Positions 3,966 through 46,100 of a stretch of DNA of 64,000 nt are shown piece after piece. The first letter of the stretch is position 1; the number at the start of each line of letters is the position of its first letter. Origin of the DNA: Heterodontus francisci. Its lineage: Eukaryota. A model generated the notes under the pieces. The model did not search any database. It was not told the DNA's origin and saw nothing but the letters and a program-made list of their open reading frames with translations. The translations under genes were made by a program, and so were the position numbers. Location of the stretch: positions 4,999,492 to 5,063,491 of the forward strand of contig NC_090418.1 of NCBI RefSeq assembly GCF_036365525.1, in the 5' to 3' direction.

Positions 3966-4266
3966 AAAACAATCGAGTTTCTTTCCATTCCTACCCAAAT
4001 TGGCTGCTGCGTTTCCTAAATTACAACAGTGACTACAGTTCAGAAGTACTTTGTTGGCTGTAAAGTGCTTTGGGACATCCTGAGATTGTGCAGGTACTAT
4101 ATAAACACAAGACTTTTCTTCCTCATAAACCCAAAATCGCCCTTCAATCCCCCGAGGGTAGCAGGAGCCACTACTCTAACTCTCCATAGCGCATCCCCTC
4201 TCAATAGTCACACCCCCACTCTATATATCAAATAAACACTGCCAGTAAACATATTGTATCATTTCA

Positions 4267-4272
4267 TTTATT
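4267..4272 (-). terminator. Polyadenylation signal of TMEM95
   Basis: AATAAA on the minus strand about 315 nt after the stop codon, at the end of a non-repetitive 3' UTR. Confidence 0.6.
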
Positions 4273-4585
4273 GTGGAGTTTGAAGATTACAGTCAGTACA
4301 CGATAAGATGAGCAGAGGCATATTATCAGGCAATAGCAGATCTACGGCCACGTGCTCTTCACAATATCGATAATGTAATAACCTCTTGCTCGAGTTCCAC
4401 AACTGACCTGTGAATTGAGCCTAGATTCAAACAAGTCTAACGTTCCTACGAGTGTACTACGTGATTTAACAACAGTGAATTGGGATTTATTCAACGGAAC
4501 AGCATCGTAACCTGTTCGTATGTTGCACTTTTACGTTGCCACTTGATTCTGAGGCGCACAGCCTGTGTGTCTAAAACTCAGCCCT

Positions 4586-4628
4586 CTATCCATCCTCTTC
4601 ATCTGCCTGATCTCGTAACTTCCTTGAT
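4586..4628 (-). CDS. TMEM95: TMEM95 exon 7 (cytoplasmic tail, stop)
   Basis: ctcaacag| acceptor, phase 2, (E)SRKLRDQADEEDG*; followed by 3' UTR and AATAAA. Confidence 0.75.
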
Positions 4629-7600
4629 CTGTTGAGATAATTTTAGTAAAAATGGGAAGTTTATTATGAAACAAAGGAAAAACCTTGTGGGTGCTGGAAA
4701 TCTGAAATAAAAATATAAATGATGGAAAACACTGAGTGGGTCAGGCAGCAGCTGTGGAGAGAGAGAAATAGAGTTAACGTGGCAGGCTAATGACATTTGT
4801 CAGAAAGAAAGACTTGCATTTCTATAGCACCTTTCACAATCTCAATACGTCCCACAGTGCCTTACAGCCAGTGAAGCACTTTATTGAAGTGTAGTCACTG
4901 TTGTAATGTAGGAAACTTGGCAGCCATTTTGTGCACAGCAAGATCCCACAAACAGCAATGTCATAATGACCAGATAATCTGTTTTTAGTGATGTTGGTTG
5001 AGGGATAAATATTGGCCCCAGGACACTGGGGAGAACTCCCCTGCTCCTCCTTGAATAATGCCTTGGGATATTTTATGTTCACCTGAGAGGGCAGACTGAG
5101 CCCAAGTTTAATGTCTCATCCAAAAAGCAGTACCTCTGACAGTGTAGCATTCCCTCAGTGCTGTACTGGGATTATCAGCTTGGATTGTGCACTCAAGTCT
5201 CTGTTGCGGCACTTGACCCCATAACTTTCTGATTCGGAGGTGAGAATGTTACCTGTTGAGCCAAGGATGATACTAGAGATGATTAGTTTTTAAGTAGAGA
5301 GCCAGGGAAAAATTTGGAGGTGGGGCAAGAAAATAACAAAAAGGGGAAGGACTGTGATGTGATGGAGGACAGGAGGTTTACTATCTCACAGTGACTGCTC
5401 CCAGACTACAGTCAGCCTTTGAGCTGTGCTCCACACTCCTTTAAAAGATGAGACTGGTCGATGCATTAGCAAAGGGTTTGGATTGGAACTCACTTTCAAA
5501 TATATTGAGATTTATGCCAGAGTTAAATTCCCTTAAATGTGAAACACGGGACTGTTAAATACAGAGAAGTTTCAAGGACTCTGATGGGCTGTAAATGTTT
5601 TATGAGAGTAATTATTTTTCATTTCTTTTTCTATCAACATGAATCTTTTGTGCTCAAGGGGAACAGTGCTAGTGGTGGAAATTGAAAAAACATTCCCAGG
5701 ACAGGTACAGCACGGGGTTAGATACAGAGTAAAGCTCCCTCTACACTGTCCCATCAAACACTCCCAGGACAGGTACAGCACGGGGTTAGATACAGAGTAA
5801 ATCTCCCTCTACACTGTCCCCATCAAACACTCCCAGGACAGGTACAGCACGGGGTTAGATACAGAGTAAAGCTCCCTCTACACTGTCCCCATCAAACATT
5901 CCCAGGACAGATACAGCACAGGTTAGATACAGAGTAAAGCTCCCTCTACACTGTCCCCATCAAACATTCCCAGAACAGGGACAGCACGGGGTTAGATACA
6001 GAGTAAAGCTCCCTCTACATTGTCCCCATCAAAAAAAAAAACGGGGTTAGATACAGAGTAAAGCTCCCTCTACACTGTCCCATCAAACATTCCCAGAACA
6101 GATACAACACAGGTTAGATACAGAGTAAAGCTCCCTCTACACTGTCCCCATCAAACATTCCCAGAACAGGGACAGCACGGGGTTAGATACAGAGTAAAGC
6201 TCCCTCTACATTGGCCCCATCAAAAAAAAAAACGGGGTTAGATACAGAGTAAAGCTCCCTCTACACTGTCCCATCAAACATTCCCAGAACAGATACAACA
6301 CAGGTTAGATACAGAGTAAAGCTTCTTTTACACTGTCCCATCAAACATTCCCAGAACAGATGTTATATACAGAGTAAAAGCTCCCTGTACACTCTGCCCC
6401 AACCTTAGAGGAGCACCTCTATTCCACCAGCCTGACAGCCTTCCATGTCCCGCATCACCAGTACTGAAATGTTTGTGCCCATGAACAGTAAGGACTGAAT
6501 TGAGACTGGCTAAACTGATTCACATAGTACTGTTACAGCACTGGCCTACAATGTGCCTCCTGTCCCACTCTCAACCTGGTTGACTCTTAACCGCCCTCTG
6601 GGGTGGGCCAAGCAAAACACTCAATTGCATAAAATTGCTACCAGGAGTGTAAGAAGAAGCCCACTACCTTCTCAAGATAAACTAAGGGATGGGCAATAAA
6701 TGCCATCCTTGCCGGCGACAATAGCAACAATTCAGATTTATATAGCGCCTCTATATAGCCCAAGGGGCTTCAAAGGAACGTTATAAAACAAAATTTGATA
6801 CTGAGCTACATAAGGAGATATTAGGACAGGTGACCAAAAGCTTTGGTCAAAGAGGTCGGTTTTAAGAAGCGTCTGAAAGGAGGAGAGAGAGATAGAGAGG
6901 TTTAGGGAGAGAATTCCAGAGCTTAGGGCCCAGGCAACTGAAGGCACAGCCGACAATCATGCAGCGATTAAAATTGGGGTGCTCGTGAGGCCAGAATTGG
7001 AAGTGCTCAGTGATCTTGCAGACTTGTGGGCTGGAGAAGTTTACAGAGATAAGGAGAGGCAACGTCATGGGGGGATTTGAAAACAAGGATGGGATGAGCA
7101 TCTGAGAGATTTTTTTTTTAACTTACAGCATCCCAACTATTGGTTAAAATCAGTTAATTCAGCGCAGGCTGTGGATTGAACCTAGAGCCTTCCCAGTTTG
7201 TAGTGACAGTTTTAATTCACCTTCAAGAGGGCTGTGGATTTATTTGTGTCTGACCTCTTTGTCCCCTCCCTCATTTTTGTTGGGTTTAATCTGAACATGT
7301 TGTATATTATAGAGAGAAATGATTCAGAGGCAGTTAATCATAGATTGATTTAAGGGGAAGCTAGATAAACACACGAGAAAGGAATAGGAGGTTTTGTTGG
7401 AGGGTGAGATGAAGAGGAAGGTGGGAGGAGGCTCATGTAACACCAGCACAGACCAGTTGGGCTGAATGGCCTGTTTCTGCAAATTCTAGGTAATGCTATG
7501 GTAATCTTTTATTAACTTACTCGAAAATAAGCGTAATGCAACCAATCAAAATCGAACCTGTTGACAGACCGATAATCAGATAAATGGATTCATTCAGATC

Positions 7601-10600
7601 TAACCAGTCTGTTGAAAGAACAAGATGAATTATTAGAATCTTACAGCACAGATGGAGGTCGTTCGACCCATCTTGCCTGTGAAAGCTTTGAAAGAGCCTA
7701 TCCGATTAGTCCCATTCCCCCTGCCCACTCCCAGTAGCCCTGAGGCAAAGCATCTTGAGTACCTTGGCCTATTCGACTATTTGAGGTGGTGGGGGGAAAG
7801 GGGTTTGCAGGTATGGCCAATCCACCATATGCAGTGTTGGGTGGCAGGGAGCCCAGATGGTTAGCCTGAGGGCATTGAAACCTTCATTTCTGCCCGAACA
7901 CTACCGTAGCGCCTCCTATCCCGCGGCCTTCCCGCCATGAGCCTCCGATCTGCAATTCCAACCTAAGGAGTGATCATGTGGGTGGACCCGGGAGGGGGTG
8001 GGAGTCGGGGGTGTATCAATAGCTCTTCCATCAGGCGAACCCATCGGGAGATGGATCCTGGGCTAGAAGGTGAGTTTAGGTTTCTTTGTGCATCAGGGAT
8101 GCTCTTCCAGGCCTTGGGCAGCCATTGTATCAGGCCTCCCCCTCCTTCTCAGACCCTGCTCAGAACCATCTCCCCTATCCCGATACCTTCTGATAGTCTT
8201 CTCCACCCCCCAATCCCTTCTGATAGTCTTCTCCACCCCCCCAATCACTTCTGATAGTCTTCTCCATCCCCCCAATCCCTTCTGATAGTCTTCTCCGCCC
8301 CCCCAATCCCTTCTGATAGTCTTCTCCACCCCCCCAATCACTTCCGATAGTCTTCTCCACCCCCCCAATCCCTTCTGATAGTCTTCTCCGCCCCCCCAAT
8401 CACTTCCGATATTCTTCTCCATCCCCCCAATCCCTTCTGATAGTCTTCTCCACCCCCCCTAATCACTTCCGATAGTCTTCTCCACCCCCCAATCCCTTCT
8501 GATAGTCTTCTCCACCCCCCCAATCACTTCCGATAGTCTTCTCCACCCCCCAATCCCTTCTGATAGTCTTCTCCACCCCCCCAATCACTTCCGATAGTCT
8601 TCTCCATCCCCCCAATCCCTTCTGATAGTCTTCTCCACCCCCCCCAATCCCTTCCGATAGTCTTCTCCACCCCCCAATCCCTTCTGATAGTCTTCTCCAC
8701 CCCCCAATCACTTCCGATAGTCTTCTCCATCCCCCAATCCCTTCTGATAGTCTTCTCCACCCCCCCCCCAATCCCTTCCGATAGTCTTCTCCACCCCCCA
8801 ATCCCTTCTGATAGTCTTCTCCACCCCCCAATCACTTCCGATAGTCTTCTCCATCCCCCAATCCCTTCTGATAGTCTTCTCCACCCCCCCAATCACTTCC
8901 GATAGTCTTCTCCATCCCCCCAATCCCTTCTGATAGTCTTCTCCACCCCTCAATCACTTCCGATAGTCTTCTCCATCCCCCCAATCCCTTCTGATAGTCT
9001 TCTCCACCCCCCAATCACTTCTGATAGTCTTCTCCACCCCCAATCCCTTCCGATAGTCTTCTCCACCCCTCCAATCCCTTCCGATAGGCTTCTCCACCCC
9101 CCCAATACCTTCCGATAGTCTTCTCCACCCCTCCAATCACTTCCGATAGGCTTCTCCACCCCCAATCACTTCCGATAGGCTTCTCCACCCCCAATCCCTT
9201 CTGATAGTCTTCTCCACCCCCAATCCCTTCTGATAGTCTTCTCCATCCCGAATCCCTTCTGATAGTCTTCTCCACCCCCAATCCCTTCCGATAGTCTTCT
9301 CCACCCCCCAAATCCCTTCTGACAGTCTTCGCCACCCCCAATCCCTTCCGATAGTCTTCTCCACCCCCAATCCCTTCTGATAGTCTTCTCCACCCCCAAT
9401 CCCTTCCGATAGTCTTCTCCACCCCCAATCCCTTCCGATAGTCTTCTCCACCCCCCAATCCCTTCCGATAGTCTTCTCCACCCCCAATCCCTTCTGATAG
9501 TCTTCTCCACCCCCAATCCCTTCCGATAGTCTTCTCCACCCCCAATCCCTTCCGATAGTCTTCTCCACCCCCCAATCCCTTCCGATAGTCTTCTCCACCC
9601 CCAATCCCTTCCGATAGTCTTCTCCACCCCCAATCCCTTCCGATAGTCTTCTCCACCCCCCAATCCCTTCCGATAGTCTTCTCCACCCCCCAATCCCTTC
9701 CGATAGTCTTCTCCACCCCCAATCCCTTCCGATAGTCTTCTCCACCCCCCAATCCCTTCCGATAGTCTTCTCCACCCCCAATCCCTTCCGATAGTCTTCT
9801 CCACCCCCCAAATCCCTTCTGACAGTCTTCGCCGCCCCCAATCCCTTCCGATAGTCTTCTCCACCCCCAATCCCTTCTGATAGTCTTCTCCACCCCCCCA
9901 ATCCCTTCCGATAGTCTTCTCCACCCCCAATCCCTTCTGATAGTCTTCTCCACCCCCCAATCCCTTCCGATAATCTTCTCCACCCCCAATCCCTTCTGAC
10001 AGTCTTCTCCACCCCCAATCCCTTCCGATAGTCTTCTCCACCCCAATCCCTTCCGATAGTCTTCTCCACCCCAATCCCTTCCGATAGTCTTCTTCACCCC
10101 CAATCCCTTCCGATAGTCTTCTTCACCCCCCCATCCCTCAAAAAATCCCTTCTGATAGTCTTCTCCTTGCTCCAGATCATTCCAAAAGCTTCTCTTTCAC
10201 CCACCACCATCCCCTCCCCCACACCTCCCAACCTGGCTGGCATCCTTCCATCTGCAAAAGATGATGGACAGGCAGCAAACAATCCATTTAGGTGGGGTGT
10301 CTTCGCCTGGTGCACATTTTCTGATGGCCGTGAAGACCAATCCTTGAGAGGCAGGTTGTCACAAGTGCCACATGTGAAGCTGCCAAGTGACGTTTTTAAT
10401 GTTGACGCCTGTTGCCAAGCTGCTGAAGCTACTGGTTACCACAGTAGTGCATACCAGTCCACAGGATGTGTTGCCATTTCCCTCTTTCGCCAGCTAGTGT
10501 CTCCTAGATGCGATACTCGACATTTAGGGCCTTCATGTCACGCTTGCAAGCTTCCTTGAAGCGGAGCTTGGGTACTCCACTGGTCGTCTGGACCTGGCTA

Positions 10601-13600
10601 CCTCAGCATACAGAAGGTCCTTGGGTATGTGACCGTGTTCCATCCTATGTACGTGTCCGATCACCGAAGTTGCCTCAGTTTGATTAGTGCCAACACACTT
10701 GGGAGTTCTGCCTTTGAGAGGACTCCTACATTTGTGATTAGGTCCTGCCAGGTGTTATGACTGAGGTGGAAGGAGTGCACTGTCTTTTCTAGTCCCACTT
10801 CTCCGCAGGTCATAACATATTTTTAAAATGTTTACCCAGTTACCGATTCGGTCAATCATATACTCTACTCTTTATTCCAGAATAAAATACACCAACCAGG
10901 TTGCTTTAATAAACATCAGAATTAACAGTTTATTATCAACCAAGACTTATCCAGTAACAAAGCAAAGCATTAACACACAGATTGAAATACGAAAGTTCCC
11001 TTTTTAATTTCCCCACACAAAACACTCACACAAACACTGAAAAAACCCAGAAATTCTCTCTGCAGAGGTCTGTTACAAAAAAGGACCAAAAAAAATACTT
11101 TGGCCAAATACTTGCTAATTCTTGAAGAACCAAAGAGAAGATAGGGAAAGCAGTCAGTTGTCCCTTTTGGTCTGGCATCCGGGTACACGGAGACGGGCCA
11201 CTGGGATATTTTCAGAAGCAAATCGTTCTGGAGATGTCAAGAAATCGTCTGGTAGGCTTTCCAGGAGACATGTGGCATTAGGAGTTTCAGCCAACCCACA
11301 CTTGAATGGCAGTGTTTTTCCAAAGACAGGAGGAAAGGGGAACTGACACACTGGTCTTCTCAGGGTCTCTTAGAGAGGTGCAGGCAAAATGAGCTGCGGT
11401 TTCTTTCTCCTTGGCAGGCAAAACACCAACTGTCCTCAAAACGATATCTCAGAAGCAAAACCACAAACAGAAAGTCAACCTTCTGACCTCCATAAACCTT
11501 GACATGTGGCTTCTCTGTAAACATCTTCCCCAGGTCACCAAGGTTTCTGTTGTTTATTGAGCTTAAAGCACATGATTTCCAGCAAAGGTTGTTTTCAAAT
11601 GACATCTCGGCGTCCTTTCAGTGAACTGTCAACAACAAAACAAAGTCCAGCATTTATAAAATCTTCAGCCTTCCTATGAATCCATCTCCACAATTTAAAT
11701 ATGAGTCCTCAAAAAAAACTTAACAAAAAGTATAGAAGCACCTTCATAACACAGGATATACCCATAATGTGCCGCAGACAGTGAAGATGGAAATTATTGA
11801 GCTTCTTTTCCTGGTAGCTGTAAGTCACCCATGTTTCACAGCCATACAGCAAGGTGCTGAGAACACAGGCCTTATAAACCACCAGCTTGGTCCTAAGGGT
11901 CAGCTTGGTGTTATCCTATGTGCGTTTTGTGAGTTGGCCAAAGGTGGTAGCTGCTTTCCCTATGTCTGTACCCCTGAGAGCATTCACATGGGTCCCCAGT
12001 TGCAGTCGCTCACCTCTAGATGTCCACTCCTTCTGTCCCGCCTCCTCCCTCCCCCCACCCCCGCCAGTGAAAACCCAGGCCTCGCCATCTCCTCAGTATT
12101 TGGGGAAACTGCGGCTCTGTGTTTTGATCCACAACAAAGGGGTGGGGATGGGGTGGAGATTACTCACTCGGCCAGCAGGTCTTCATGCTCCAGCAGTTGA
12201 CATTCACCTCCAGACATGTGGTGCAGTTTATAACTGTCGTCGAATCCCCTGGATAGACACGGAATGCAGCACAAGATCAACAACAGCCAGAAACTGCAGG
12301 GGGGGGGGGGGGGGGGCGGGGGTTTCTGCTGTCGAATTGCCAGACACCTACCAGCCCCCAATGCCCCCTCCCCACCCTGACTGTCCGAGCGACAGTCTGC
12401 ACTGGACCACAGGACAGGAAATATAAGCTAGGCAGTGTTGGAGAAAAACACTCAGCAGCTCAGGAGGCAGCCAAGGAGAGGGAAAGAGGAGTTAACTGAG
12501 GTGGGGAGGGGGAGGTGCAGTTTTAACCCCAGTGGGGTTAGGTGCGACCCTGATTTTACACCCACCTGATTTTACCCTCCATTTGAAGTCAATATCAGGT
12601 AGGCTGTAAAACCGGGGTTCCACCCGATTCCATGGGACTCCTCCCCCTCCACCTTCCACTCCGCCCCCAGGCCATCTCTTGTTTCTCTCTCCACTGATGC
12701 TGCCTGACCAACTGAGTGTTTCCCATAGGGGTTTCCAACTCTGCTTTTATATTCCTGGAGGTTTCATCATATGGCCACCTGCCTTCAACCAACCCACTCA
12801 GTCAAACAGCCTTTTCAAGATTTTTATTTCTCGTCACATTTTTGCTCACAGCAGTGCCCAACAGATTAATCGTCAAGTCCTGGAGACTCTAGGGCAATCC
12901 TAGTTGGCAACTCTGGTTTCGCAGCGTTTGTTGTTTTTATTTCAGATTTTGCTTTAGTTCGACAGCAGAGTAACAATCGGATGCCCTTTCTCCCCTTGTG
13001 ATAAATCCCCTGGTTCTAAGTCAGGCCATGGGGGGAGCCTGGGATCAGGGACAAAGGGAGCAGGAGTCTGTCACTTCCGTCACATCCATCACACCCACCC
13101 CCCACTGCTTCCCGGCAAGTACACATGACAGGGTGCCACTGGAGGAGTTAAATGGCGGGGAACTGATCTTTGGCTCCTGGTTGTGGCCAATTACCTTGCA
13201 CTATTGGCTGGGGACGCTGACCATTACCGTGACTCAAGCTAGGATAAGAATCCTACAACATAGCAGGAGGCCATTCAGTCCATCGTACTTATGCCGGCTC
13301 TTTGAAAGTGCGATCTAATTAGTCCCACCCCCTTTTGCTCTTTCTTTATTGCCCTGCAATTTTTTCATTTTCGAGTATCTAACCTAACTGGGAAAGTGAG
13401 GCAATTCGAAAAAAAATAAGCTTTCACAAGGGAGCGAAGCTTCCATTTTCGCTCCATGGGAGTCGAAGGGTCAAAGGATCCCATTAAAACATTCCATACA
13501 GAGCAGGGATTAAACCTAGGGGACTTTAGCCCACAATGTGCACGAGGGGGTGGTGGCGTCAATTTTCTCCCACACTGTACTGTGAGGGGGTGGTGATGTC

Positions 13601-16600
13601 AATTTTAACTGAACTCACTGGGCAGGAATCCCACAGGATCAAGTTAAACACTGGGTTTTACCCCCCCCCCCCCCCCCCACTCCCCCCAATACCATTATTA
13701 GTCCCCGTTGATTCAAATTGGGCAGAGTGGAAACAAAATTGCCCTACGTGCATTGAATTTCCCATTGAATTCAGTTCGACATGTTTCCACAGCGGGGGTT
13801 TTAAATCATGACCTGCCGGACAAGCCACTCCATAACTGATGGGCTTTATTGAACACTAACAGCTACAGTTTTTAAGAGGTGGGTAGGTTGTACTCACTGC
13901 ATTTGGGGGCACACATGGCTGCAGAAAAAAGAAAGGAAGGTTTTATCAACAACAAGAGCTTGCATTTCTATATCAGCTTTAACATACTGAAATATCCTAA
14001 GGTGCTTCACAGGAGCATTAGCAAAACAAACCGAGTCACAGAAGGAGATGCCACAGGTGACTAAAAGTTTGGGCAAACAGATAGATTTTAAGGAGCGTTT
14101 TAAAGGAGGAGAGAGGTGGAGAGGTTTAGGGAGGGAGTTGCAGAGCTTAGGACCCAGGCAGTTGAAGGCACGGCCACCAATGGTGGAGCGAAGGAAATCA
14201 AGAATGCGCAGAGAGGCCAGAATTGGAGGGATCCAGAGATTTGTAGGGATTGATGAAGTTCCAGAGATAGGGAGGGTGAAGGCATCGGGGGATTTGGAAA
14301 CAAGGATGAGAATTTTAAAATTGAGGCATTTCTGGACTAGGAGCCAATGTAGGTCAGCCATGGGTAAACAAGTTGAGATATAGGCATCAGAGCTTTGAAT
14401 GAGCTCAGGTTTACTACCAGTGAGTTTGGTGCTGCCAGAACAGCATATGGGTAATTCAGGGAACATGTCTCCTGTAATTTTGCCACCATTCAACATGTGT
14501 GCCTGAAACAGCCTAGACCTATGCCCCCAAGAATTTTCATTGTCATAGAGAGATACAGCACTGAAACAGGCCCTTTGGCCCACCGAGTCTGTGCTGACCA
14601 ACAACCACCCATTTATACTAATCCTACATTAATCCCATATTCCCTACCACCTACCTACACTAGGGACAATTTATAATGGCCAATTTACCTGTTAACCTGC
14701 AAGTCTTTGGCGGTGGGAGGAAACCGGAGCACCCGGCAGAAACCCACACAGTCACAGGGAGAACTTGCAAACTCCACACAGGCAGTAACCAGAATTGAAC
14801 CCAGGTCGCTGGAGCTATGAGGCTGCGGTGCTAACCACTGCGCCACTGTGTCGCCCACTGTTTCCTTCCCTAAATTTGAGGACAGTCTTGCATTGATACC
14901 GCACCTTTCACAACTTCAGGATATCCCAAAATGCTTCGCAGATAATGAAGAACTTTGTGAAGTGCGGTCACTGTAGTAATGTAGGGAACTGCTGATTTGT
15001 ACACAGCAAGCTCCCACAAACAGCAATGAGATAAGTGACTAGATAATCTATTTTTGGTGGTGCTGGTTGAGGGACAAATGTTGTCCAGGACACCAAAGAG
15101 AACTCGCCTGCTCTTTAAAATAGTGGCCACGGGATCTTTTACATCCACCTGAGAGGGAAAACAGGGCCTCAGTTTAATGCCTCATCTAAAGGACAATACT
15201 TCCAACAATGTAGCACACTCTCTGTACTGTACTGGGAGTGTGGGCCTTGATTTTGTCTCTGAAGTGGGATTTGAACTCACAACCTTCTGAGTTGAGAGTA
15301 CTACCCAATGAGCCACAGCTGACACTGTTAATGCTAGGTTAACATCCAGTGGTGAGGGAATCAGTGTCCGGACAAGTGACCACCACCTCTGACGCTGCCC
15401 CAGCAAGCACATAATGTAGCACCGGCTCCCAATACTGGGTTGACGTCAGCGGTTTCATTTGGGTCTGATGAATGTCGATGGTTAAGCCCCCTCCGCCCCC
15501 GTAATGATTAGGAGAAGGTCTTTAGCTTTGGTTGATGCAAATGCAGAGAAGGTCCTCTGAAGCTTAAAAAGAAATGAGGAAGGCAACAGATACCACCTCA
15601 GTGATTCTTGTCTAGTGAATGGCTCATGTATGAGACTTGAATTAGGACATGCCCTCAGGGCAGCATTTAACCCATGAATGGACTACAATAATCATTAAAA
15701 AATAATAATAGCAAATGTCTTCTCACCCTCTTGGGTCAATTTTGGAAGCTTTACTTCATAGAGCCAGTTCCAAAAGATGGGCAGATCTGTCAGGGTCTGG
15801 TTGATCTCTGTGGAGATAGTTGCACATGGCAGAGGTTGTGACATTATTTAGTCCTTCTCTGGACTAGTAATATATTGTAATATACAGGCAGAAGAATAAA
15901 CGTGGCTACCTATAACTCGTAGAACCCGATGTACCTTTTCTGAGATCATGTCAACCAACACTTCATCTGGGCGGAAAAAGAAACAGTATTAGATGTGAAT
16001 GTGAATCCGTTCACTGCTAACTTGCCTTGTCCAAACATAGATTGCAGGGACAAATCTCTTCCCATTATATAAAATCTCAATGGATGACACCTTTTTCCTG
16101 CCATTATAGAGTGTCAATAGACTAAAAACATCCCATTCACTCCCACAGAATCCCAGTAAACTAAATCCCTTCTCATTCAATCCCATTGGATGCAACACAG
16201 TGGATTACCCTGTTCCACTCATTCCCATTGCTTAGAACTTCAATTGTCTAAACCCCTTCTCATTCACTTCCATTGGATAGAATCCCAACAGACCAAACTA
16301 CTTCCTTTTCACTGCCATTATACAAAATTCCAATAAACAAAACCCTTTCCCTCCTATTATATGGAATTTCAATGGAACCAAGTCCTTTCCCATTCCTTCC
16401 AATTGTATACTAGTCCAACGGATGGAACAAGTCTATGTGGCAGATAGAGCACAGACGTGGACAGGAGAATGGACTGTTTCTGTACTGTAATTTTTTTCTA
16501 ATTAATGTCCCCACAAAATGAAATACATTAATAACAATAATGACTTTTATTTAAGATAGCTTTATTTGTCTGGTTTACAGTTTAACCATTTGCACACAGT

Positions 16601-17109
16601 CTTTCCTAAAATGGACAGTGGTGATTCTAACAAATATATACGGGTGGGAAACGGGGAGGGGGACAGGAGAGAAAATATATTAACTGAGAGAAACAGAGTT
16701 AACGTTTCAGGCCTGATAGGGTAGTGGTAGCCTTCAAAAGGGAATTGGACAAATACCTGTAGGAGAAAAAAAAAATTGGAGAGTTATGGGGAAAGAGTGG
16801 GACCAACTGGATTTGCTCTTCACGTGTTGGCACAGACTTGATGGACCAAATGGCCTCCTTCTGTGCTGTACTATTCTATGATTCTGTTCTATAATAGATA
16901 ACCTCACCAAATAGAAATTTATTCAGGTCTGCATCTGTGTACATGGTGCAGTTTGTAGTCCCTGTCAGCACCTCGTACTCCCCGCACAGCTTCTGAAATC
17001 TGTCCCTTATTCTTTTATGTGGAAAAGCACAGAACATGCAACCTTCGGCCTTCAAGATGAGACCCAGCCAGAGGCCAGTCACCATCACAGTGCTGGCTGT
17101 CTTCTTCAT
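4586..17109 (-). CDS. TMEM95: TMEM95 (IZUMO-fold sperm-egg fusion protein), 7 coding exons, 190 aa: complement(join(4586..4628,7521..7608,12168..12248,13898..13918,15727..15807,15910..15966,16908..17109))
   Basis: All introns GT-AG with consistent phases (1,1,1,1,1,2); 573-nt open frame. Protein MKKTASTVMVTGLWLGLILKAEG-CMFCAFPHKRIRDRFQKLCGEYEVLTGTTNCTMYTDADLNKFLF-DEVLVDMISEKVHRVLRVI-EINQTLTDLPIFWNWLYEVKLPKLTQE-AMCAPKC-RDSTTVINCTTCLEVNVNCWSMKTCWP-NWLDLNESIYLIIGLSTGSILIGCITLIF-ESRKLRDQADEEDG. Matches recalled human TMEM95 blocks CVFC, DEV..EKTHRVLRVME, LPSYWSWL..KLP, ALCPPAC, STTLYNCSTC..CW...CFP, then the TM helix. Confidence 0.92.
4670..4804 (-). mobile_element. Penelope-derived short element (single arm, degenerate)
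   Basis: tgctggaaatctgaaataaaaa...cagcagctgtggagagagagaaatagagttaacg; same family as 23025 and 29636. Confidence 0.6.
4805..5270 (-). mobile_element. Deu-domain SINE (SacSINE1-like), near full length
   Basis: 3' tail aagaaagacttgcatt, Deu core and tRNA-like head. Confidence 0.75.
5688..6400. repeat. About 61-bp tandem repeat (about 11-12 copies), expanded from an LF-SINE-like segment
   Basis: Unit aaacattcccaggacaggtacagcacggggttagatacagagtaaagctccctctacactgtcccatc; dispersed monomers at about 23000-23230 and 60775-60835. Confidence 0.85.
6720..7100 (-). mobile_element. L2-clade LINE 3' end
   Basis: Translation AFSCLGPKLWNSLPKPL and tail aggcgctatataaat. Confidence 0.65.
7521..7608 (-). 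CDS. TMEM95: TMEM95 exon 6 (transmembrane helix)
   Basis: ttctttcaacag| ... TTCGA|gtaagt; NWLDLNESIYLIIGLSTGSILIGCITLIFE. Confidence 0.85.
8175..10165. repeat. About 30-bp minisatellite, about 2 kb (TMEM95 intron 5)
   Basis: Unit ccaatcccttcYgatagtcttctccacccc with variable C-run length. Confidence 0.95.
10230..11965 (-). mobile_element. RTE-clade LINE fragment split by a solo LTR
   Basis: 10230-10752 and 11752-11965 are continuous RTE sequence; same family as 24425-24970. Confidence 0.7.
10753..11751. mobile_element. Solo LTR (Ty3/Gypsy-type), 999 bp
   Basis: Starts TGTTATGA and ends TCATAACA (8-bp inverted termini, TG..CA); 4-bp TSD CAGG at 10749-10752 and 11752-11755. Confidence 0.85.
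12168..12248 (-). CDS. TMEM95: TMEM95 exon 5 (beta-hairpin, CxxC)
   Basis: tctatccag| ... CCGA|gtgagt; RDSTTVINCTTCLEVNVNCWSMKTCWP. Confidence 0.9.
13898..13918 (-). CDS. TMEM95: TMEM95 exon 4 (21-nt microexon)
   Basis: ctttcttttttctgcag| ... TGCA|gtgagt; AMCAPKC versus human ALCPPAC. Confidence 0.88.
13950..14410 (-). mobile_element. L2-clade LINE 3' fragment
   Basis: Translation DLHWLLVQKCLNFKILILVSK...GGRAFNCLGPKLCNSLP. Confidence 0.7.
14546..14856 (-). mobile_element. HE1-type shark tRNA-derived SINE
   Basis: tRNA head with A/B boxes (gtggcgcagtggttagc; ggttcaattc), core ctgtgtggagtttgcaagttctccc, CR1-like tail gcctgtttcagtgctgtatctct. Confidence 0.85.
14885..15325 (-). mobile_element. 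Deu-domain SINE (SacSINE1-like)
   Basis: Same family as 4805-5270. Confidence 0.7.
15727..15807 (-). CDS. TMEM95: TMEM95 exon 3
   Basis: ctccacag| ... GAGG|gtgaga; EINQTLTDLPIFWNWLYEVKLPKLTQE. Confidence 0.9.
15910..15966 (-). CDS. TMEM95: TMEM95 exon 2
   Basis: tttttccgcccag| ... ATAG|gtagcc; DEVLVDMISEKVHRVLRVI. Confidence 0.9.
16908..17109 (-). CDS. TMEM95: TMEM95 exon 1 (signal peptide, CxxC)
   Basis: acaATG start, hydrophobic leader ending AEG, then CMFC...KLC...NC; TTTG|gtgagg donor. Confidence 0.9.
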
Positions 17110-17641
17110 TGTCAAACTAGTGAAGGACAGTGCAATATTGAGTTTGCAAGCTAGTTTAACTGCTCAGTTTAACAGTTGCTAGTTGTGTGTGTTCAAATTA
17201 AATCAGTTAACTTTGGGTTTGCTAGGTGGTTGCTAGTGTTCCATCTTTTATGCTGTCATAAGGATAGCAAGTGAACCATTGATGTCAGCAATTCCAAATC
17301 TCTCAGCTGTTTCTCCTGTGATTCCATACAATGTTTTAGAATAGCCACTTCCCTCATTGGATATGAGGACATTGGATGAGTTGTCTATGGGAATCTGGCC
17401 AAGTTGATTGATGTGGAACTCAGTCAGAATAGGGGCATTGTTTTAGGTCATTAATTGAACTGTATGTTACCAAGGCCCGAGCACGTATTTGAGACTTAGA
17501 TGACTGGTGCCAAGTTGTGTCTTCGCATTACAGGAAAACCTCCCTATGCATTTGTGCTTTGTGATAGAGGATCTCTACAATGTTTAGTTCTGGTAAGAGG
17601 CTGGAACTTGGTTAACAAATTTGCTAAAAGTAAGACCTGCA

Positions 17642-17932
17642 TTTAGTTTAGTTTAGAGATACAGCACTGAAACAGGCCCTTCGGCCCACCGAGTCTGTGC
17701 CGACCATTAACCACCCATCCATACTCTTTTTTCTTTCTTTCTTTCTTTTGGGCCTCCTTATCTCTATCCTACACTAATTCCATATTCCTACCACATCCCT
17801 ATATTTCCCTACCACCTACCTATACTAGGGACAATTTATAACAGCCGATTAACCTATCAACCTGCAAGTCTTTTGGCATGTGGGAGGAAACCGGAACACC
17901 CGGAGGAAACCCATGCAGACACAGGGAGAACT
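17642..17932 (-). mobile_element. 5'-truncated HE1-type SINE
   Basis: Same sequence as the other HE1 copies; lacks the tRNA head and abuts a Deu-SINE. Confidence 0.8.
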
Positions 17933-18375: not shown

Positions 18376-18419
18376 ACTATTGGTGCATTTGCCCCTCTTT
18401 TGCCCCCCTTTGGTTGCAA

Positions 18420-19150
18420 TGCCAACCTTGCCCTGCCCTCAACCAGTGCCCGTGACGTCATCGCCGCTGCGATTGTGCGTGTGTCAACGTGATGACGCAG
18501 TCGCCGCGCTGCCGGCCGCTTCAACCTGCGCGGAAGATGGCGGCGGGCGAGCGGCGCTGCGCATTCGGGCCTATGTTCCCAGAGCCTCCCACCGGCTTCG
18601 GGTCCCTCAGCTCGTCGCTGCTGTGCCGGAAACCGGTGTTCGTGTTGTCGGTGGAGAGATACCCGAGGGATCCGGAGAGCGGGAGAAGACTGTTGGAAGA
18701 TTCGGGCGGCGGTGGCGGCCCCGACCTGTACGACCTGAGCCTGACCGACGGCCACTGCCGCCTCCGGGCCACTCTGCGGCCCACGCTCAACCCCTTGGTC
18801 CGCCGCAACGAGTTGCACTGCGGCTGCGAGTTGAGGGAAATCCGCCTCGGGGTGGAGTACGACGAAAGGCGGCTTGGCGGTGGCGGCCGGCTCTTCGTCG
18901 TCCTGGAGGCCCAGGTGGTTAAGCGGGGCAGCGGTGCCCTGCCCCCAGCCATTAGGAGGCTGAAGGTGCAGAAGCTGCAGGTGTTCGGTAACGGGGCGGA
19001 GCAATGTCAGCGGCCAGAACTGCCACTCAAAGCCAAGAGGCGGTACTACCTGCCTCTGTGGGACAGTGCCAACTATTATGGGGAAGCTTGGCACCGACAG
19101 CCCCCTGGGCACCCTACCCATCGACTTGAAGGTGAAGTGGTACCGTCCTG
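18420..19150 (+). promoter_or_regulatory. CpG island promoter / exon 1 of the RADX-like gene
   Basis: CpG-dense island in a CpG-poor background; full CRE TGACGTCA at 18453-18460; ETS core CGGAAG at 18531-18536 overlapping the YY1 motif AAGATGGCGGC at the ATG. Confidence 0.75.
18537..19131 (+). CDS. RADX: RADX-like exon 1 (OB1)
   Basis: aagATGG Kozak (an in-frame upstream ATG at 18492 is possible); GAAG|gtgaag donor, phase 1. Confidence 0.85.
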
Positions 19151-37100: not shown

Positions 37101-40100
37101 ACTAAACCTGTGATCTTTGAGGGACATTTTATTTCACAGTGATTAACATCAGCAACCGACACATTTCTATCACACTTCATTAGTCTCTCCTTCTCTCAGC
37201 CAATGTGAGATTCAAAGCCCTGTGCAGCACTTGACACACTGCAGTGAGTTAATCTCCGGCAGCTGTCTACCATGCTGTTTCCATGAAGTTAGTGTTGAGA
37301 AGTGGCAGCATTTCCGATGTATTGAAAAGAGAGAGATTTTCCCCTTTGCAGTGCTGAGGGCCCCTTTCTCTCTTTGCTTAAAAACATCCCCCATTTTTGT
37401 CCCATAGTTCTTGAGATGCTGTCTTTTGTTTGGATAGGCCACTTCAGACATAGTGATGGACAGAAAATGCCCCTCTGGTCCATCCCGCCTGGCCCACACA
37501 ACTGTAATGCCAATATTTACGGTCCTCTCCTCCCTAAAGTTATGTGATCTCCCAGGAGAGGTGAAAAACCAAATAACCCAGGCTAGTTAGGGGGTCACAA
37601 ATCTGGAACATTCCTCTCCCACCCCTTTGGGCAATCAAAACTCATCCAGGAGGCCACTTTGGCCCTGATGAAGGATATGCAATACCTGTTATACAAGGTG
37701 ATCTCCACCCCAGCCAGAAACAGACCCTGCTCTCACCAAGTATCTGCTTTTCATCTGTAGAATCCAAACAGTGAGTGTTGGCAGGTTAATTGACCATTGA
37801 CAGGAGTGGAATGGGGGGGCAGGATCTGTCAGAGCCATATCTGATCCTGCCCTAACTCAACATCCCCCCACACATGCAGTTTCCAGCAGGATTCACTGCG
37901 TAACAGTCTGGTGCAGGAAACCTGGATGATTTTAATCCCTCCTTCACAGCCTAGGGTCAATGAGACCCATTGAAACAGCTCAACTGCTGCCCCAGCTGAA
38001 ATCATCTCACTCGGCAGTGACAGAATCAAACCGGAATCTTCTGGTCTGAAAAGACTAGAATTTTCTCCTTTGTGTGAACTCTCATATAATTCTAAAATCT
38101 TTCCAAGCAATTACTTGGGTGGGGACAGAATCTCAACATTTGTGATACTTCCCGATGTACAGTTTTACCTCAATGAGAAGAACCACTTGTGAAATTATAT
38201 GAAATTCTCTCGGTTTCACTCAGCATAAATGTTCTCCAGATATTGAAGTTTGAAACATGTGTGCTGTGAAACCTTAGATATTCTTACTAAGTTGCACATA
38301 CTAATAGATTTGTAATTGGACCCTGTTTAATTGTTGGTGCAGGAAGGAATTGTCAGAGCTACGATCTGGAGATCTGTGTGACATCATTGGCCTTGTTACC
38401 TTTGTCGGTAGACAGGAGCGTATCCGCAACAAAGGTATGTACAGTAACTCTCCCAGCACCTGTCACCCTCTGTACCTCACTGCCAGTGGCGTGCAAGCCT
38501 CCGTACCTCACTGCCAGGCCCCTGTCACACCCTACGCGTCACCCTCCCAGGCACCTGTCACGCCCTGCTCCTCCCTCCCAGGCACCTGTCACCCCCTGCT
38601 CCTCCCTCCCGGGCACCTGTCACCCCCTGCTCTGCACCTCCCTCCCAGGGCACCTGTCACCCCCTGCTCCTCACCTGCCAGGCACCTGTCACCCCCTGCT
38701 CCTCACCTCCCAATAATCTGTCACCCCCTGCACTTCACTCCGAGGCACCTGTCACCCCCTGCACTTCACTCCCAGGCACCTGTCACCCCCTGCTCCTCAC
38801 CTCCCAGGCACCTGTCACCCCCCTGCTCCTCACCTCCCAGGCACCTGTCACCCCCCTGCTCCTCACCTGCCAGGCACCTGTCACCCCCTGCTCCTCACCT
38901 GCCAGGCACCTGTCACCCCCTGCTCCTCACCTCCCAATAATCTGTCACCCCTTGCACTTCACTCCCAGGCACCTGTCACCTCCTGCTCATCCCTCCCAGG
39001 CACCTGTCACCCCCTGCTCATCCCTCCCAGGCACCTGTCACCCCCTGCTCCTCACCTCCCAGGCACCTATCACCCCCTGCAGCTCCCTCCCAGGCACCTG
39101 TCACCCCCTGCTCCTCCCTCCCAGGCACCTGTCACCCCCCTGCTCCGCACCTCCCTCCCAGGCACCTGTCACCCCCCTGCTCCTCCCTCCCAGGCACCTG
39201 TCACCCCCCTGCTCCACACCTCCCTCCCAGGCACCTGTCACCCCCTGCTCCTCCCTCCCAGGCACCTGTCACCCCCTGCACATCACCCCCTGCTCCTCCC
39301 TCCCAGGCATCTTTCATCCCCTGCTCCTCCCTCCCAGGCACCTGTCACACCCTGCTCCTCCCTCCCAGGCACCTGTCACCCCCCTGCTCCTCACCTGCCA
39401 GGCACCTGTCACCCCCTGCTCCTCACCTGCCAGGCACCTGTCACCCCCTGCTCCTCACCTCCCAATAATCTGTCACCCCTTGCACTTCACTCCCAGGCAC
39501 CTGTCACCCCCTGCTCATCCCTCCCAGGCACCTGTCACCCCCTGCTCCTCACCTCCCAGGCACCTGTCACCCCCTGCAGCTCCCTCCCAGGCACCTGTCA
39601 CCCCCTGCTCCTCCCTCCCAGGCACCTGTCACCCCCCTGCTCCTCACCTGCCAGGCACCTGTCACCCCCTGCTCCTCACCTGCCAGGCACCTGTCACCCC
39701 CTGCTCCTCACCTCCCAATAATCTGTCACCCCTTGCACTTCACTCCCAGGCACCTGTCACCCCCTGCTCATCCCTCCCAGGCACCTGTCACCCCCTGCTC
39801 CTCACCTCCCAGGCACCTGTCACCCCCTGCTCCTCCCTCCCAGGCACCTGTCACCCCCCTGCTCCGCACCTCCCTCCCAGGCACCTGTCACCCCCCTGCT
39901 CCTCCCTCCCAGGCACCTGTCACCCCCCTGCTCCACACCTCCCTCCCAGGCACCTGTCACCCCCTGCTCCTCCCTCCCAGGCACCTGTCACCCCCTGCAC
40001 GTCACCCCCTGCTCCTCCCTCCCAGGCATCTTTCATCCCCTGCTCCTCCCTCCCAGGCACCTGTCACACCCTGCTCCTCCCTCCCAGGCACCTGTCACCA

Positions 40101-43100
40101 CCTGCTCCTCCCTCCCAGACACCTGTCACTCCCCTGCTCCACACCTCCCTCCCAGGCACCTGTCACCCCCTGCTCCTCCCTCCCAGGCACCTGTCACCCC
40201 CTGCACGTCACCCCCTGCTCCTCCCTCCCAGGCATCTTTCATCCCCTGCTCCTCCCTCCCAGGCACCTGTCACCCCCTGCACGTCACCCCCTGCTCCTCC
40301 CTCCCAGGCACCTGTCACCACCTGCTCCTCCCTCCCAGTCACCTGTCACCCCCTGCACCTCACTTCCAGGCACCTGTCACTCCCCTGCTCCGCACCTGTC
40401 ACTCCCAGGCACCTGTCACTCCCCTGCTCCGCACCTCCCTCCCATGCACCTGTCACCCCCTGCTCCTCCCTCCCAGGCACCTGTCACCCCCTGCTGCTCC
40501 CTCCCAGGCACCTGGCACCCCCTGCACGTCACCCCCTGCTCCTCCCTCCCAGGCACCTGTCACCCCCTGCTCCTCACCTCCCAGGCACCTGTCACCCCCT
40601 GCTCCTCACCTCCCAGGCACCTGTCACCCCCTGCTCCTCACCTCCCAGGCACCTGTCACCCCCTGCTCCTCACCTCCCAGGCACCTGTCACCCCCTGCTC
40701 CTCACCTCCCAGGCACCTGTCACCCCCTGCTCCTCACCTCCCAATAATCTGTCACCCCCTGCACTTCACTCCCAGGCACCTGTCACCCCCCTGCCCCTCA
40801 CCTCCCAGGCACCTGTCACCCCCCTACTCCTCACCTCCCAGGCACCTGTCACCCCCTGCTCCTCACCTGCCAGGCACCTGTCACCCCCTGCTCCTCACCT
40901 CCCAATAATCTGTCACCCCCTGCACTTCACTCCCAGGCACCTGTCACCCCCTGCACCTTACTCCCAGGCACCTGTCACCCCCTGCTCCTCCCTCCCAGGC
41001 ACCTGTCACCCCCCTGCTCCTCTCTCCCAGGCACCTGTCACCCCCCTGCTCCACACCTCACTCCCAGGCACCTGTCACCCCCTGCTCCTCACTCCCAGGC
41101 ACCTGTCACTCCCAGGTACCTGTCACTTATCTGCTCCGCACCTCCCTCCCAGGCACCTGTCACCCCTCTGCTCCGCTCCTCCCTCCCAGGCACCTGTCAC
41201 CCCCCTGCTCCTCCCTCCCAGGCACCTTTCACACCCTGCTCCTCCCTCCCAGGCACCTTTCACACCCTGCTCCTCCCTCCCAGGCACCTGTCACCCCCTG
41301 CTCCTCCCTCCCAGGCACCTTTCACACCCTGCTCCTCCCTCCCAGGCACCTGTCACCCCCTGCTCCTCCCTCCCAGGCACCTTTCACACCCTGCTCCTCC
41401 CTCCCAGGCACCTTTCACACCCTGCTCCTCCCTCCCAGGCACCTGTCACCCCCTGCTCCTCCCTCCCAGGCACCTTTCACACCCTGCTCCTCCCTCCCAG
41501 GCACCTGTCACACCCGCTCCTCCCTCCCAGGCACCTTTCACACCCTGCTCCTCCCTCCCAGACACCTGTCACCCCCTGCTCCTCCCTCCCAGGCACCTGT
41601 CACCCCCTGCTCCTCCCTCCCAGGCATCTTTCACCCCCTGCTCCTCCCTTCCAGGCATCTTTCACCCCCTGCTCTTCCCTCCCAGGCACCTGTCACCCCC
41701 CTGCTCCGCACCTGTCACTCCCAGGCACCTGTCACTCCCCTGCTCCGCTCCTCCCTCCCAGGCACCTGTCACCCCCTGCTCTTCCCTCCCAGGCACCTGT
41801 CACCCCCCTGCTCCGCACCTGTCACTCCCAGGCACCTGTCACTCCCCTGCTCCGCTCCTCACTCCCAGGCATCTGTCACTCCCCTGCTCCGCACCTGTCA
41901 CTCCCAGGCACCTGTCACTCCCCTGCTCCGCTCCTCCCTCCCAGGCACCTGTCACCCCCTGCTCCTCCCTCCCAGGCACCTGTCACCCCCTGCTCCTCCC
42001 TCCCAGGCACCTGTCACCACCTGCTCCTCCCTCCCAGACACCTGTCACTCCCCTGCTCCACACCTCCCTCCCAGTCACCTGTCACCCCCTGCACCTCACT
42101 TCCAGGCACCTGTCACTCCCCTGCTCCGCACCTGTCACTCCCAGGCACCTGTCACTCCCCTGCTCCGCATCTCCCTCCCAGGCACCTGTCACCCCCTGCT
42201 CCTCCCTCCCAGGCACCTGTCACCCCCTGCACCTCCCTCCCAGGCACCTGTCACCCCCTGCTGCTCCCTCCCAGGCACCTGGCACCCCCTGCTCCTCCCT
42301 CCCAGGCACCTTTCACCCCCTGCTCCTCCCTCCCAGGCACCTTTCACACCCTGCTCCTCCCTCCCAGGCACCTGTCACCCCCTGCTCCTCACCTACCAGG
42401 CACCTGTCACCCCCTGCTCCTCACCTCCCAATAATCTGTCACCCCCTGCACTTCACTCCCAGGCACCTGTCACCCCCTGCACTTTACTCCCAGGCACCTG
42501 TCACCCCCCTGCACCTCCCTCCCAGGCACCTGTCACCCCCTGCTCCTCCCTCCCAGGCACCTGTCACCTCCTGCTCCTCCCTCCCAGGCACCTGTCACCC
42601 CCTGCTCCTCCCTCCCAGTCACCTGTCACCCCCTGCACCTCACTCCCAGGCACCTGTCACCACCTGCTCATCCCTCCCAGACACCTGTCACTCCCCTGCT
42701 CCACACCTCCCTCCCAGTCACCTGTCACCCCCTGCACCTCACTCCCAGGCACCTGTCACTCCCCTGCTCCGCACCTGTCACTCCCAGGCACCTGTCACTC
42801 CCCTGCTCCGCACCTCCCTCCCAGGCACCTTTCACCCCCTGCTCCGCCCTCCCAGGCACCTGTCACCCCCTGCTCCTCCCTCCCAGGCACCTGTCACCCC
42901 CTACTGCTCCCTCCCAGGCACCTGGCACCCCCTGCACGTCACCCCCTGCTCCTCCCTCCCAGGCACCTGTCACCCCCCTGCTCCACACCTCCCTCCCAGG
43001 CACCTGTCACCCCCTGCACCTCCCTCCCAGGCACCTGTCTCCCCCTGCTCCTCCCTCCCAGGCACCTGTCACCCCCTGCTCCTCCCTCCCAGGCACCTGT

Positions 43101-46100
43101 CACCCCCTGCTCCTCCCTCCCAGGCACCTGTCACCCCCTGCTCCTCCCTCCCAGGCACCTGTCACCCCCTGCTCCTCCCTCCCAGGCACCTGTCACCCCC
43201 TGCTCCTCCCTCCCAGGCACCTGTCACCCCCTGCTCCTCCCTCCCAGGCACCTGTCACCCCCTGCTCCTCCCTCCCAGGCACCTGTCACCCCCTGCTCCT
43301 CCCTCCCAGGCACCTGTCACCCCCTGCTCCTCCCTCCCAGGCACCTGTCACCCCCTACTGCTCCCTCCCAGGCACCTGGCACCCCCTGCACGTCTCCCCC
43401 TGCTCCTCCCTCCCAGGCACCTGTCACCCCCTGCTCCTCCCTCCCAGGCACCTGTCACCCCCTGCTCCTCCCTCCCAGGCACCTGTCACCACCTGCTCCT
43501 CCCTCCCAGGCACCTGTCACTCCCTGCTGCTCCCTCCCAGGCACCTGTCACCCCCTGCTCCTCCCTCCCAGGCACCTGTCACCACCTGCTCCTCCCTCCC
43601 AGGCACCTGTCACCCCCTGCTCCTCCCTCCCAGGCACCTGTCACCCCCTGCTCCTCCCTCCCAGGCACCTGTCACCCCCTGCTCCTCCCTCCCAGGCACC
43701 TTTCACACCCTGCTCCTCCCTCCCAGGCACCTGTCACCCCCTGCACTTCACTCCCAGGCACCTGTCACCCCCTGCTCCGCCCTCCCAGGCACCTCATTCC
43801 CAAACTTTTAAAAGGAAATTTGATAAATACTTGGAGAGGAAATATTTGCAGTGCACTGGGGAAAGACCAGTGGAGAGAGACGATTGATCCCCTACTATGC
43901 CGTAAGATTCCGTGATTCTGCTCAAATAAATGGTCTTCCTTTCTAACTGATTCCACCAGCCTACGCTGTTTGATTAGATTTAGATTAGAGATACAGCACT
44001 GAAGCAGGCCCTTCGGCCCACCGAGTCTGTGCCGAACGTCAACCACCCATTTATACTAATCCTATACTAATCCCATATTCCTACCACATCCCCACCTGTC
44101 CCTCTATTTCCCTACCACCTACCTATACTAGTGACAATTTATAATGGCCAATTTACCTATCAACCTGCAAGTCTTTGGCATGTGGGAGGAAACCGGAGCA
44201 CCCGGAGAAAACCCACGCAGACACAGGGAGAACTTGCAAACTCCACACAGGCAGTACCCGGAATCGAACCCGGGTCCCTGGAGCTGCGAGGCTGCGGTGC
44301 TAACCACTGCGCCACTGTGCCGCCAAGTTCACTGTGCGAACTTTCTTGCATTAAGAAAGTTCACTTCAGCTTCTCTTCTCTTCCATGTCAATTTCATTTT
44401 TGCAGAGCGCTCTGAGGAATTCCTGGTCTACCGCTGGGTGCACCTGATTGATGGGACGGCATCCGAACCTTTTGTCCTGAAGCTTTTCTCAACCTCCCAG
44501 CCTGAGATCCAGGCACAGTTATCCCCATGCAGCATGGCGGATAATACCGGTAAGAGTTTTCACATCTTTGCATTGTTTGCAATCTTTGTTGAAAGTCTTG
44601 GTCCCATAATTTATTCTGTTGCTTGACATGGTACTAGGAAGGAAGGAGAATTTGCATTTCTATAGTGCCTTTCAGGACTTCAGGATGCCCAAAAATGCTT
44701 TACAACCATGGAAGTACTTTTGAAATGTAGTCACCGGTGTAATGTTGGAAACGTGGCAGCCAATTTGTCCACAGCAAGATCCTACAAACAGCAGTTTAAT
44801 AATGACCACTGAGCCATAGCTACTACCTACTAAGCCATGCAGATCAGGTTTCACTCCACCCCCATTTTTTCAGTGTTAGCTACTCGATGGTGGGTCTCCT
44901 ATCTTCACTGGACACTCTCACCTGCATGCAATCCGATAACAGTCACTGCCTTAGTTCAAACTTGCTAACTGGGAACAAATTGGCAAATGGCAATGGCTAA
45001 TATTTAAAGAACTAATACATAGTTAACAACAAAAATACATTCCTTTAATGCATGAAAACTCAGCAAGGAAAATGTTCCAACAGTGGCTAATGAAAGGATT
45101 GTATTAGATCAAAGGAAGAGGCGTATAAAGTTGCCAAAAAAATGGTAAGCCCAAGGATTGGGAGCATTTTAGAATTCTGCAAAGGAGGACCAAGAAAAAG
45201 ATTAAGAAGGGGAAAATAGAATGAGAGTAAACTAACGAAAAATATAAAAATGGTCTGTAAAAGCTTCTATAGGTATGTAAAAAGCGTTACGACGAGGATG
45301 GAGGAGTGCACTGTCTTTCTCTAGTTCCACTTCTCCACGGGTCACAGCATATGTTTAAATGTTTTACCCAGTTACCGATACTGCCAATTATGTACTTTAT
45401 TCTAGTTTCAGAATAAAAGTCCGCCAACCAGGTTTCTTTACTAAACAACAAAATTATTAATTTATTATAAAACAAGACTCATTCAATAACGATGCAAAGC
45501 TTATTAACGCACAGGTTGAAATATGAAAGTATAAATATATTCCCATCTAAATAACCCAAACACGCACGCACACACTGGTTAAAGGAAAAATAAAGAAGCT
45601 TTATCTGCAGAGATCTACTTTACAAAAAACAAAATAATACTTTGGCCAAGTACTTGTTAATTCTTGAAGAAAAAGAATAAGTTCCAGCTGGTCTGGCGTG
45701 TGGATACACATAAATAGGTGTCGCTAGACAGATGCAGTTGTCACTGGGATCTTTTCAGAAGCAGTTCGTTCAGGAGACGCCAAGAGAAAGTCTTCCAGAA
45801 GCTGCTCAGGAGAAATGCTGTATCGGTTTTCCAGTTCTCACACTGGATTCTCAGGATTTCTCAAAGAGGTGGAACAGGATGAGCTGGTAGCCTCTCTCTC
45901 TGAGCAGGCTTACACCCCAACTGAACTCCAAACAAATAGTTCAAAAATGAAACCAGCTCTTCACCATAAATCTAGACACGTCATTTGTCTGTAAACAACT
46001 CCAATAGTCAGAAAGGCTCCTGCTGTTAACTTAGCTTAAGACATGTGACTTCCAGTCAGTGTTTTTAAACAAAGTCCCAAGTGTCCTTCCAGTGACCCTT

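Follow-up and report, generated by a model that had tools for sequence, protein, structure and literature searches.

We analysed a 64,000-nucleotide (nt) stretch of the Heterodontus francisci genome (contig NC_090418.1, positions 4,999,492 to 5,063,491; hereafter the window), in which a first-pass annotation made from the letters alone had described an intact gene for TMEM95, a sperm-egg fusion factor of mammals. Rejoined by coordinate, the seven minus-strand exons gave an open frame of 573 nt that encodes 190 amino acids (aa) with no internal stops. From 5' to 3' the exons measured 202, 57, 81, 21, 81, 88 and 43 nt (the last with the TAG) and all six introns were GT-AG; the exon sizes, splice sites and protein length of the annotation were thus reproduced exactly.

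The seven-exon gene and its product

All of the TMEM95 exons lie on the minus strand. Coding exon 1 (17109-16908), which is absent from the RefSeq model of the locus, carries the ATG, a predicted signal peptide, a CxxC motif, helix 1, C42 and C54. Exon 2 (15966-15910) encodes helix 3 and contains M74, the start of a 117-aa RefSeq model. Helix 4 lies in exon 3 (15807-15727), where F98 and W101 correspond to human Y87 and W90, and exon 4 (13918-13898) is a 21-nt micro-exon with C116 and C120 that is left out of several database isoforms. The beta-hairpin hinge, the second CxxC (C129 and C132), C139, C145 and a sequon at N128 come from exon 5 (12248-12168); the stalk and the transmembrane helix come from exon 6 (7608-7521). 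Exon 7 (4628-4257 in full, coding 4628-4586) supplies a 13-aa tail, the stop (4588-4586) and the 3' untranslated region (UTR), whose end we place near 4257 from the length of an RNA contig (see below). The annotation had recorded one polyadenylation signal; a signal is present, with the correction that there are two AATAAA downstream of the TAG, at 4491 and 4272. The RNA-contig arithmetic favours that at 4272 as the one in use.

Upstream of exon 1, the minus-strand stretch 17110-17244 is similar in other sharks and is a likely promoter or 5' UTR. It aligns with the N-terminal extensions of two database models, yet has four stops here. Because the upstream frame is interrupted by four stops in 45 codons, we take the ATG at 17109 as the start.

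The ectodomain has ten cysteines (24, 27, 42, 54, 116, 120, 129, 132, 139 and 145), as the annotation had stated, and an eleventh (C171) lies inside the membrane helix. Hydropathy peaks at ~157-175 (2.06), with a lower N-terminal maximum (1.42). Together with a fold model of the catshark ortholog (see below), this is consistent with a type I topology: a signal peptide, predicted from its position, one membrane helix, a short tail and no immunoglobulin (Ig) domain.

Family identity and conservation

To place the gene in a family, we scanned exons 1, 3 and 5 singly against 24,736 Pfam models. The sole match of each was PF15203 (TMEM95), at collinear model positions: 1-35 for exon 1 (E 0.0034), 61-86 for exon 3 and 96-120 for exon 5 (E 4.5e-06). 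The single-exon scores of 17.4, 21.5 and 26.8 bits were each below the cut-off of 27; exon 6 matched none of the Pfam models. Residues 74-190, scanned as an identical RefSeq piece, scored 123.6 bits against the same curated cut-off. This 117-aa piece did not reach the cut-off of the Pfam IZUMO family (PF15005; 10.5 bits vs 25, E 0.96). The only significant sequence match in the PDB was human TMEM95, 7UX0, over residues 75-148 (E 7e-25; profile E 2e-35), with about half of the residues identical (38/74, by our count).

The annotation had also proposed a fold comparison with human TMEM95. We modelled the catshark ortholog, from 42 sequences, in place of the window's joined protein. The model is built of three long helices with a hairpin and resembles the helical bundle and beta-hairpin of 7UX0. 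In a fold search, 7UX0 was the only match under E 0.001 (E 7.7e-08, probability 1.00); IZUMO1 chains came next and were not significant (E of at least 0.47).

With exon 1 as the query, eight proteins were found among 11 candidates; each comes from a shark or a ray and carries PF15203, and the exon 1 identities were 65-81%; the catshark protein as the query found 23 among 97 candidates. A genome search with a protein query returned four exon matches, all at this locus, the next best having an E of 1.9. TMEM95 is single-copy in the H. francisci genome.

Seven full-length orthologs were picked for their 190-aa length, one from a catshark (Scyliorhinus canicula XP_038642792.1) and six from batoids (Amblyraja radiata XP_032872203.1, Hypanus sabinus XP_059831209.1, Narcine bancroftii XP_069776084.1, Leucoraja XP_055486949.1, Rhinoraja XP_078284377.1 and Hemitrygon XP_072903793.1). 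All seven align to the window protein gapless, with 121-150 of 190 residues identical (150 in the catshark), and all seven keep the ten cysteines, so that the gene is conserved across sharks, rays and skates with ordinary divergence. The NC(S/T) sequon that the annotation had singled out is present here at N128; it is kept in only two of the seven orthologs and gone in five, while a sequon at N89 is kept in all seven. Between the window protein and the orthologs, the invariant positions number 5/23 in the leader, 18/44 in residues 24-67 (including four Cys), 31/47 in 68-114, 22/34 in the hinge, 13/29 in the stalk and membrane helix and 1/13 in the tail. Such a profile is what would be expected from purifying selection on the ectodomain.

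A decaying pseudogene, or a chain of exons joined by chance, is largely refuted by these data. Exon 1 was not seen spliced and a whole-genome Pfam search did not pick up TMEM95, as either idea would have it. The Pfam miss is explained by the small size of the exons, which the protein query did find. The frame is open with canonical sites, and the chain is not chance because seven of seven orthologs are gapless, 190 aa long and carry the ten cysteines, and because residues 74-190 equal a RefSeq protein at 117/117 positions. The TMEM95 identity given by the annotation was borne out by the PF15203 matches, by 7UX0 and by named RefSeq orthologs, and the sequence comparisons support the seven-exon gene as a TMEM95 ortholog.

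The RefSeq protein is XP_067880145.1-XP_067880148.1, 'sperm-egg fusion protein TMEM95-like' (H. francisci, 117 aa), which in all likelihood is this very locus. Unlike the window protein, it starts at M74 and is without exon 1 and hence the signal peptide, helix 1 and four Cys. Exon 1 is likewise missing from database models of Heptranchias, Stegostoma, Rhincodon, Chiloscyllium and Hemiscyllium. The novelty implied by the annotation does not hold, since the locus and its orthologs in many sharks and rays already carry the names TMEM95 or TMEM95-like in RefSeq. What is added to the known is the overlooked first coding exon and, as described below, a putative second transcript that skips it and is likely non-reproductive.

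Searching 1.84 billion proteins with a profile built from 12 chondrichthyan sequences gave 50 matches at E <= 0.001. Ten of these were looked up; eight are named TMEM95 (snake, caecilian, platypus, a cat, bear, bowfin, frog and rat) and two, from a newt and a lizard, are uncharacterised. In a 23-row tree with no outgroup, the window protein falls within a chondrichthyan clade (support 100/100) on a long stem (0.85); the deeper branches are weak. R70, V71 and W90 (human numbering) are invariant in 23/23 aligned rows, and K67 and R73 in 22/23. In bowfin TMEM95 the pocket residues K67, V74 and I77 are altered and the branch is long (1.33), which suggests relaxed selection in this ray-finned fish.

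The presence of TMEM95 in chondrichthyans, bowfin, amphibians and a snake agrees with the annotation's proposal that the gene predates the split of cartilaginous and bony fishes. Its origin is thus set no later than the last common ancestor of jawed vertebrates, which is older than the earlier statement that it can be traced 'as far back as amphibians' (PMC9482655). RefSeq already implies as much, and published distribution figures may make the same point. The passages available from the literature, which include PMC7295574, PMC6354393 and PMC10267171, did not name TMEM95 in sharks; the distribution figures of three papers, built from NCBI searches that post-date the RefSeq entries, may well show it. 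The available text of PMC13192892 calls the distribution of TMEM95 'more limited and scattered', and that of PMC13192804 describes the gene as older than FIMP. IST-superfamily members in sharks are already published, and Tmem81 has been placed in lampreys, hagfishes and cartilaginous fishes (bioRxiv 2023.07.27.550750).

Neighbouring genes and transcripts

RADX lies head-to-head with TMEM95 on the plus strand (18456-57000). Its exon 1 reading frame (18456-19131, donor 19132) matches PF17659 (E 1.4e-12) and sits in a CpG island, with a CpG observed/expected ratio of 0.87 at 18400-19150 vs 0.29 for the whole window. Four more frames match PF17659 in order, near 21.7, 38.4, 44.5 and 56.7 kb. Between the two genes, at 18453-18460, is a full cAMP response element (CRE) palindrome, TGACGTCA, one of four such in the window and a candidate site for CREB/CREM binding. 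Large minisatellite arrays occupy TMEM95 introns 5 and 6 (8170-10150 and 5700-6400) and a RADX intron (38400-43900), and long interspersed nuclear element (LINE) reverse-transcriptase-like fragments were recognised by eye at 25.4-29.5 kb and elsewhere in the window.

On the other side, we scanned 147 of 302 candidate frames from the 150 kb of flank plus the first 4.6 kb of the window. A gamma/epsilon-type subunit (CHRNE or CHRNG) of the muscle nicotinic acetylcholine receptor lies at 4.961-4.995 Mb on the minus strand, ~9 kb beyond the TMEM95 stop; its best matches are chains named gamma subunit. The flank also holds plus-strand eIF4E-family exons (PF01652), presumably of the eIF4E2 class judging by their motif.

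A KCTD11/21-family gene (10.42 Mb) and GPS2 (11.23 Mb) lie on the same contig as TMEM95, 5.4 and 6.2 Mb off. A better match to the KCTD11/21 family sits on another contig; we take the same-contig copy as KCTD11 because of its divergence and place. Its C-terminal domain, on the minus strand, is spread over two reading frames, either through a genuine frameshift or because this GC-rich DNA was misassembled. One unnamed database model joins a BTB domain to TMEM95 pieces, probably because the neighbouring genes KCTD11 and TMEM95 are read through in a tetrapod. The cattle genes GPS2, KCTD11 and TMEM95 lie inside 35 kb, and CHRNE is 570 kb off (PMC3879157, supplementary Table S1).

Local gene order in the shark is unlike that in mammals, which, with a tree that has no outgroup and a long chondrichthyan stem, could be read as the mark of an out-paralog from the vertebrate genome duplications rather than an ortholog. 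We regard this as very unlikely: the gene is single-copy, shares its contig with the KCTD11-like gene and GPS2, has an equal exon count to human TMEM95, and the tree's 23 rows show no sign of a second TMEM95-like clade.

For transcripts we used three runs (X1-X3) of one sample, guessed to be RNA, of unspecified tissue. Contigs X2:14 (1041 nt, depth 103.7) and X3:24 (1317 nt, depth 42.1) cease matching at 18593, inside RADX exon 1, with 700 and 311 letters left over. At this boundary the minus strand has a GT donor (18592-18591) and the plus strand has no AG acceptor. Exons 2 and 3 had bin depths of 19.0 and 27.7 in X2, and of 7.71 and 11 in X3; if the two contigs cover exactly 57 and 81 nt, the expected values are 19.01 and 27.68, and 7.72 and 10.96. 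Exons 2-6 (328 nt) and 372 nt of exon 7 add up to the 700 letters of X2:14, which puts the end at 4257, just past the AATAAA at 4272. This arithmetic covers X2 and X3. Because the donor, the bin depths and the 700-letter remainder fit, we infer a spliced minus-strand RNA that runs from an alternative first exon (18593-18933, with its 5' end at 18933 or beyond), antisense within RADX exon 1, to TMEM95 exons 2-7. A second promoter in the RADX CpG island would drive it. The RNA skips exon 1, and therefore cannot encode the signal peptide; the 117-aa RefSeq model probably derives from it.

An open frame runs antisense through RADX exon 1 (18593-19131, minus strand), in phase with TMEM95 exon 2 and with an ATG at 19121; GC-rich exons often have open antisense frames. 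Were the transcript to start upstream of 19121, it could encode a signal-less protein of 299 aa. In a Chiloscyllium punctatum model, the N-terminus also maps to the antisense strand of RADX exon 1 (18949-18890, 55% over 20 aa, E 0.013), which hints weakly at a shared arrangement.

These observations bear on the idea that a true TMEM95 ortholog has another job in sharks, for example as a somatic protein without a signal peptide, made from the RADX-promoter transcript. In favour of it, the one spliced RNA inferred lacks exon 1 at a contig depth of 42-104, six genera's database models (Heterodontus to Hemiscyllium) lack it too, and the alternative exon is open in the TMEM95 frame, with the in-frame ATG at 19121. 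We nevertheless think another job unlikely. Exon 1 is intact and conserved, down to the four Cys invariant within residues 24-67, and if it were missing the second CxxC would be left without its expected partners. The alternative N-termini of the database models vary by species, which argues against a conserved protein.

Function and comparison with known systems

The need for TMEM95 in sperm-egg fusion, and its binding of the egg and of FIMP, are described for mammals only in the available passages of PMC13192804, PMC9546558 and PMC8406655. By analogy, we consider it probable that the single-copy shark ortholog yields a full-length product in spermatids that reaches the sperm surface and aids fusion as in mammals, via the groove of helices 3 and 4; testis expression, localisation, ligand and requirement are all extrapolated from mouse, cattle and human. 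A spermatid promoter beside exon 1 would yield the full mRNA, and the signal peptide (~1-23) would be cleaved. Five disulfides would stabilise the helical bundle and beta-hairpin. The basic groove (K78, R81, V82, R84, V85, F98 and W101) would then, as part of the sperm fusion complex, bind a partner that is either a protein of the egg surface or a sperm peptide resembling FIMP.

Several observations weigh against this explanation. No exon 1-exon 2 spliced joint is listed in the three runs of the one sample, and the sole long listed contig over exon 1 (X1:5, 16856-17669) is unspliced and of low depth (6.57). The catshark model is middling, with a predicted local distance difference test (pLDDT) of 68.5, a predicted template modelling score (pTM) of 0.46 and a 7.0 Å root-mean-square deviation from 7UX0. 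The adjoining genes, RADX and the receptor subunit, are unlike the mammalian KCTD11 and TNK1. Finally, zebrafish fertilise with a seven-subunit complex without TMEM95, according to the available text of PMC13192892; the gene is therefore dispensable in some vertebrates and, given an origin in the jawed-vertebrate ancestor, its absence from that complex reflects loss.

We mapped human numbering by sequence alignment (7UX0 chain start 17). The FIMP pocket of human TMEM95 is given as K67, R70, V71, V74, Y87 and W90 in the accessible part of PMC13192804. The shark equivalents are K78, R81, V82, V85, F98 and W101, five of the six being identical, with Tyr replaced by Phe at the other. Substitutions of human R70 and R73 abolish egg binding, as reported in the accessible part of PMC9546558; R73 is R84 in the shark, and R84 and the six pocket positions are unchanged in seven of seven orthologs. 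The EK.HRVLR egg-binding patch pointed out by the annotation is found as EKVHRVLRV in exon 2 (human K67, R70, V71, R73 and V74), and K78, R81, R84 and W101 hold throughout the orthologs. A FIMP profile search of the genome gave nothing significant; the search is insensitive, and the absence of FIMP from the shark is not established by it because the same kind of search missed TMEM95 itself.

The near-unchanged pocket where FIMP is seemingly absent may, we suggest tentatively, point to an older ligand, either TMEM95's long-sought egg receptor or an unrecognised aromatic-motif sperm peptide, and in the same proposal a conserved antisense promoter in RADX exon 1 hid the signal-peptide exon from annotation in several sharks. 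We hold this combined proposal to be less probable than its opposite. If true, shark TMEM95 would be a clean bait for the pocket's older ligand. In practice, the gene model is corrected and the FIMP/egg-binding groove is seen to be near-invariant where FIMP seems absent; the latter is relevant to the question, raised in PMC13192804, of whether the first ligand of the groove sits on the egg.

Compared with IZUMO1 and SPACA6 of the IST superfamily, shark TMEM95 has a related helical bundle, a CxxC pair and a hinge; unlike them, it has no Ig domain and matches Pfam IZUMO only at the E value given above. With human TMEM95 (7UX0) it shares the Cys pattern, the helical bundle with hairpin, the lack of an Ig domain and the seven exons, and cattle exon 6 bears the membrane helix as here (PMC3879157). 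The Cys layout comprises two CxxC motifs and putative pairs as human C35-C45, C105-C134 and C109-C128. K67, R70, V71, R73, V74, I77 and W90 are identical in the two proteins. The shark protein differs in having Phe for Y87, a loop between helix 1 and helix 3 that is four residues longer, and the N89 sequon where human TMEM95 has K78; the neighbouring genes also differ.

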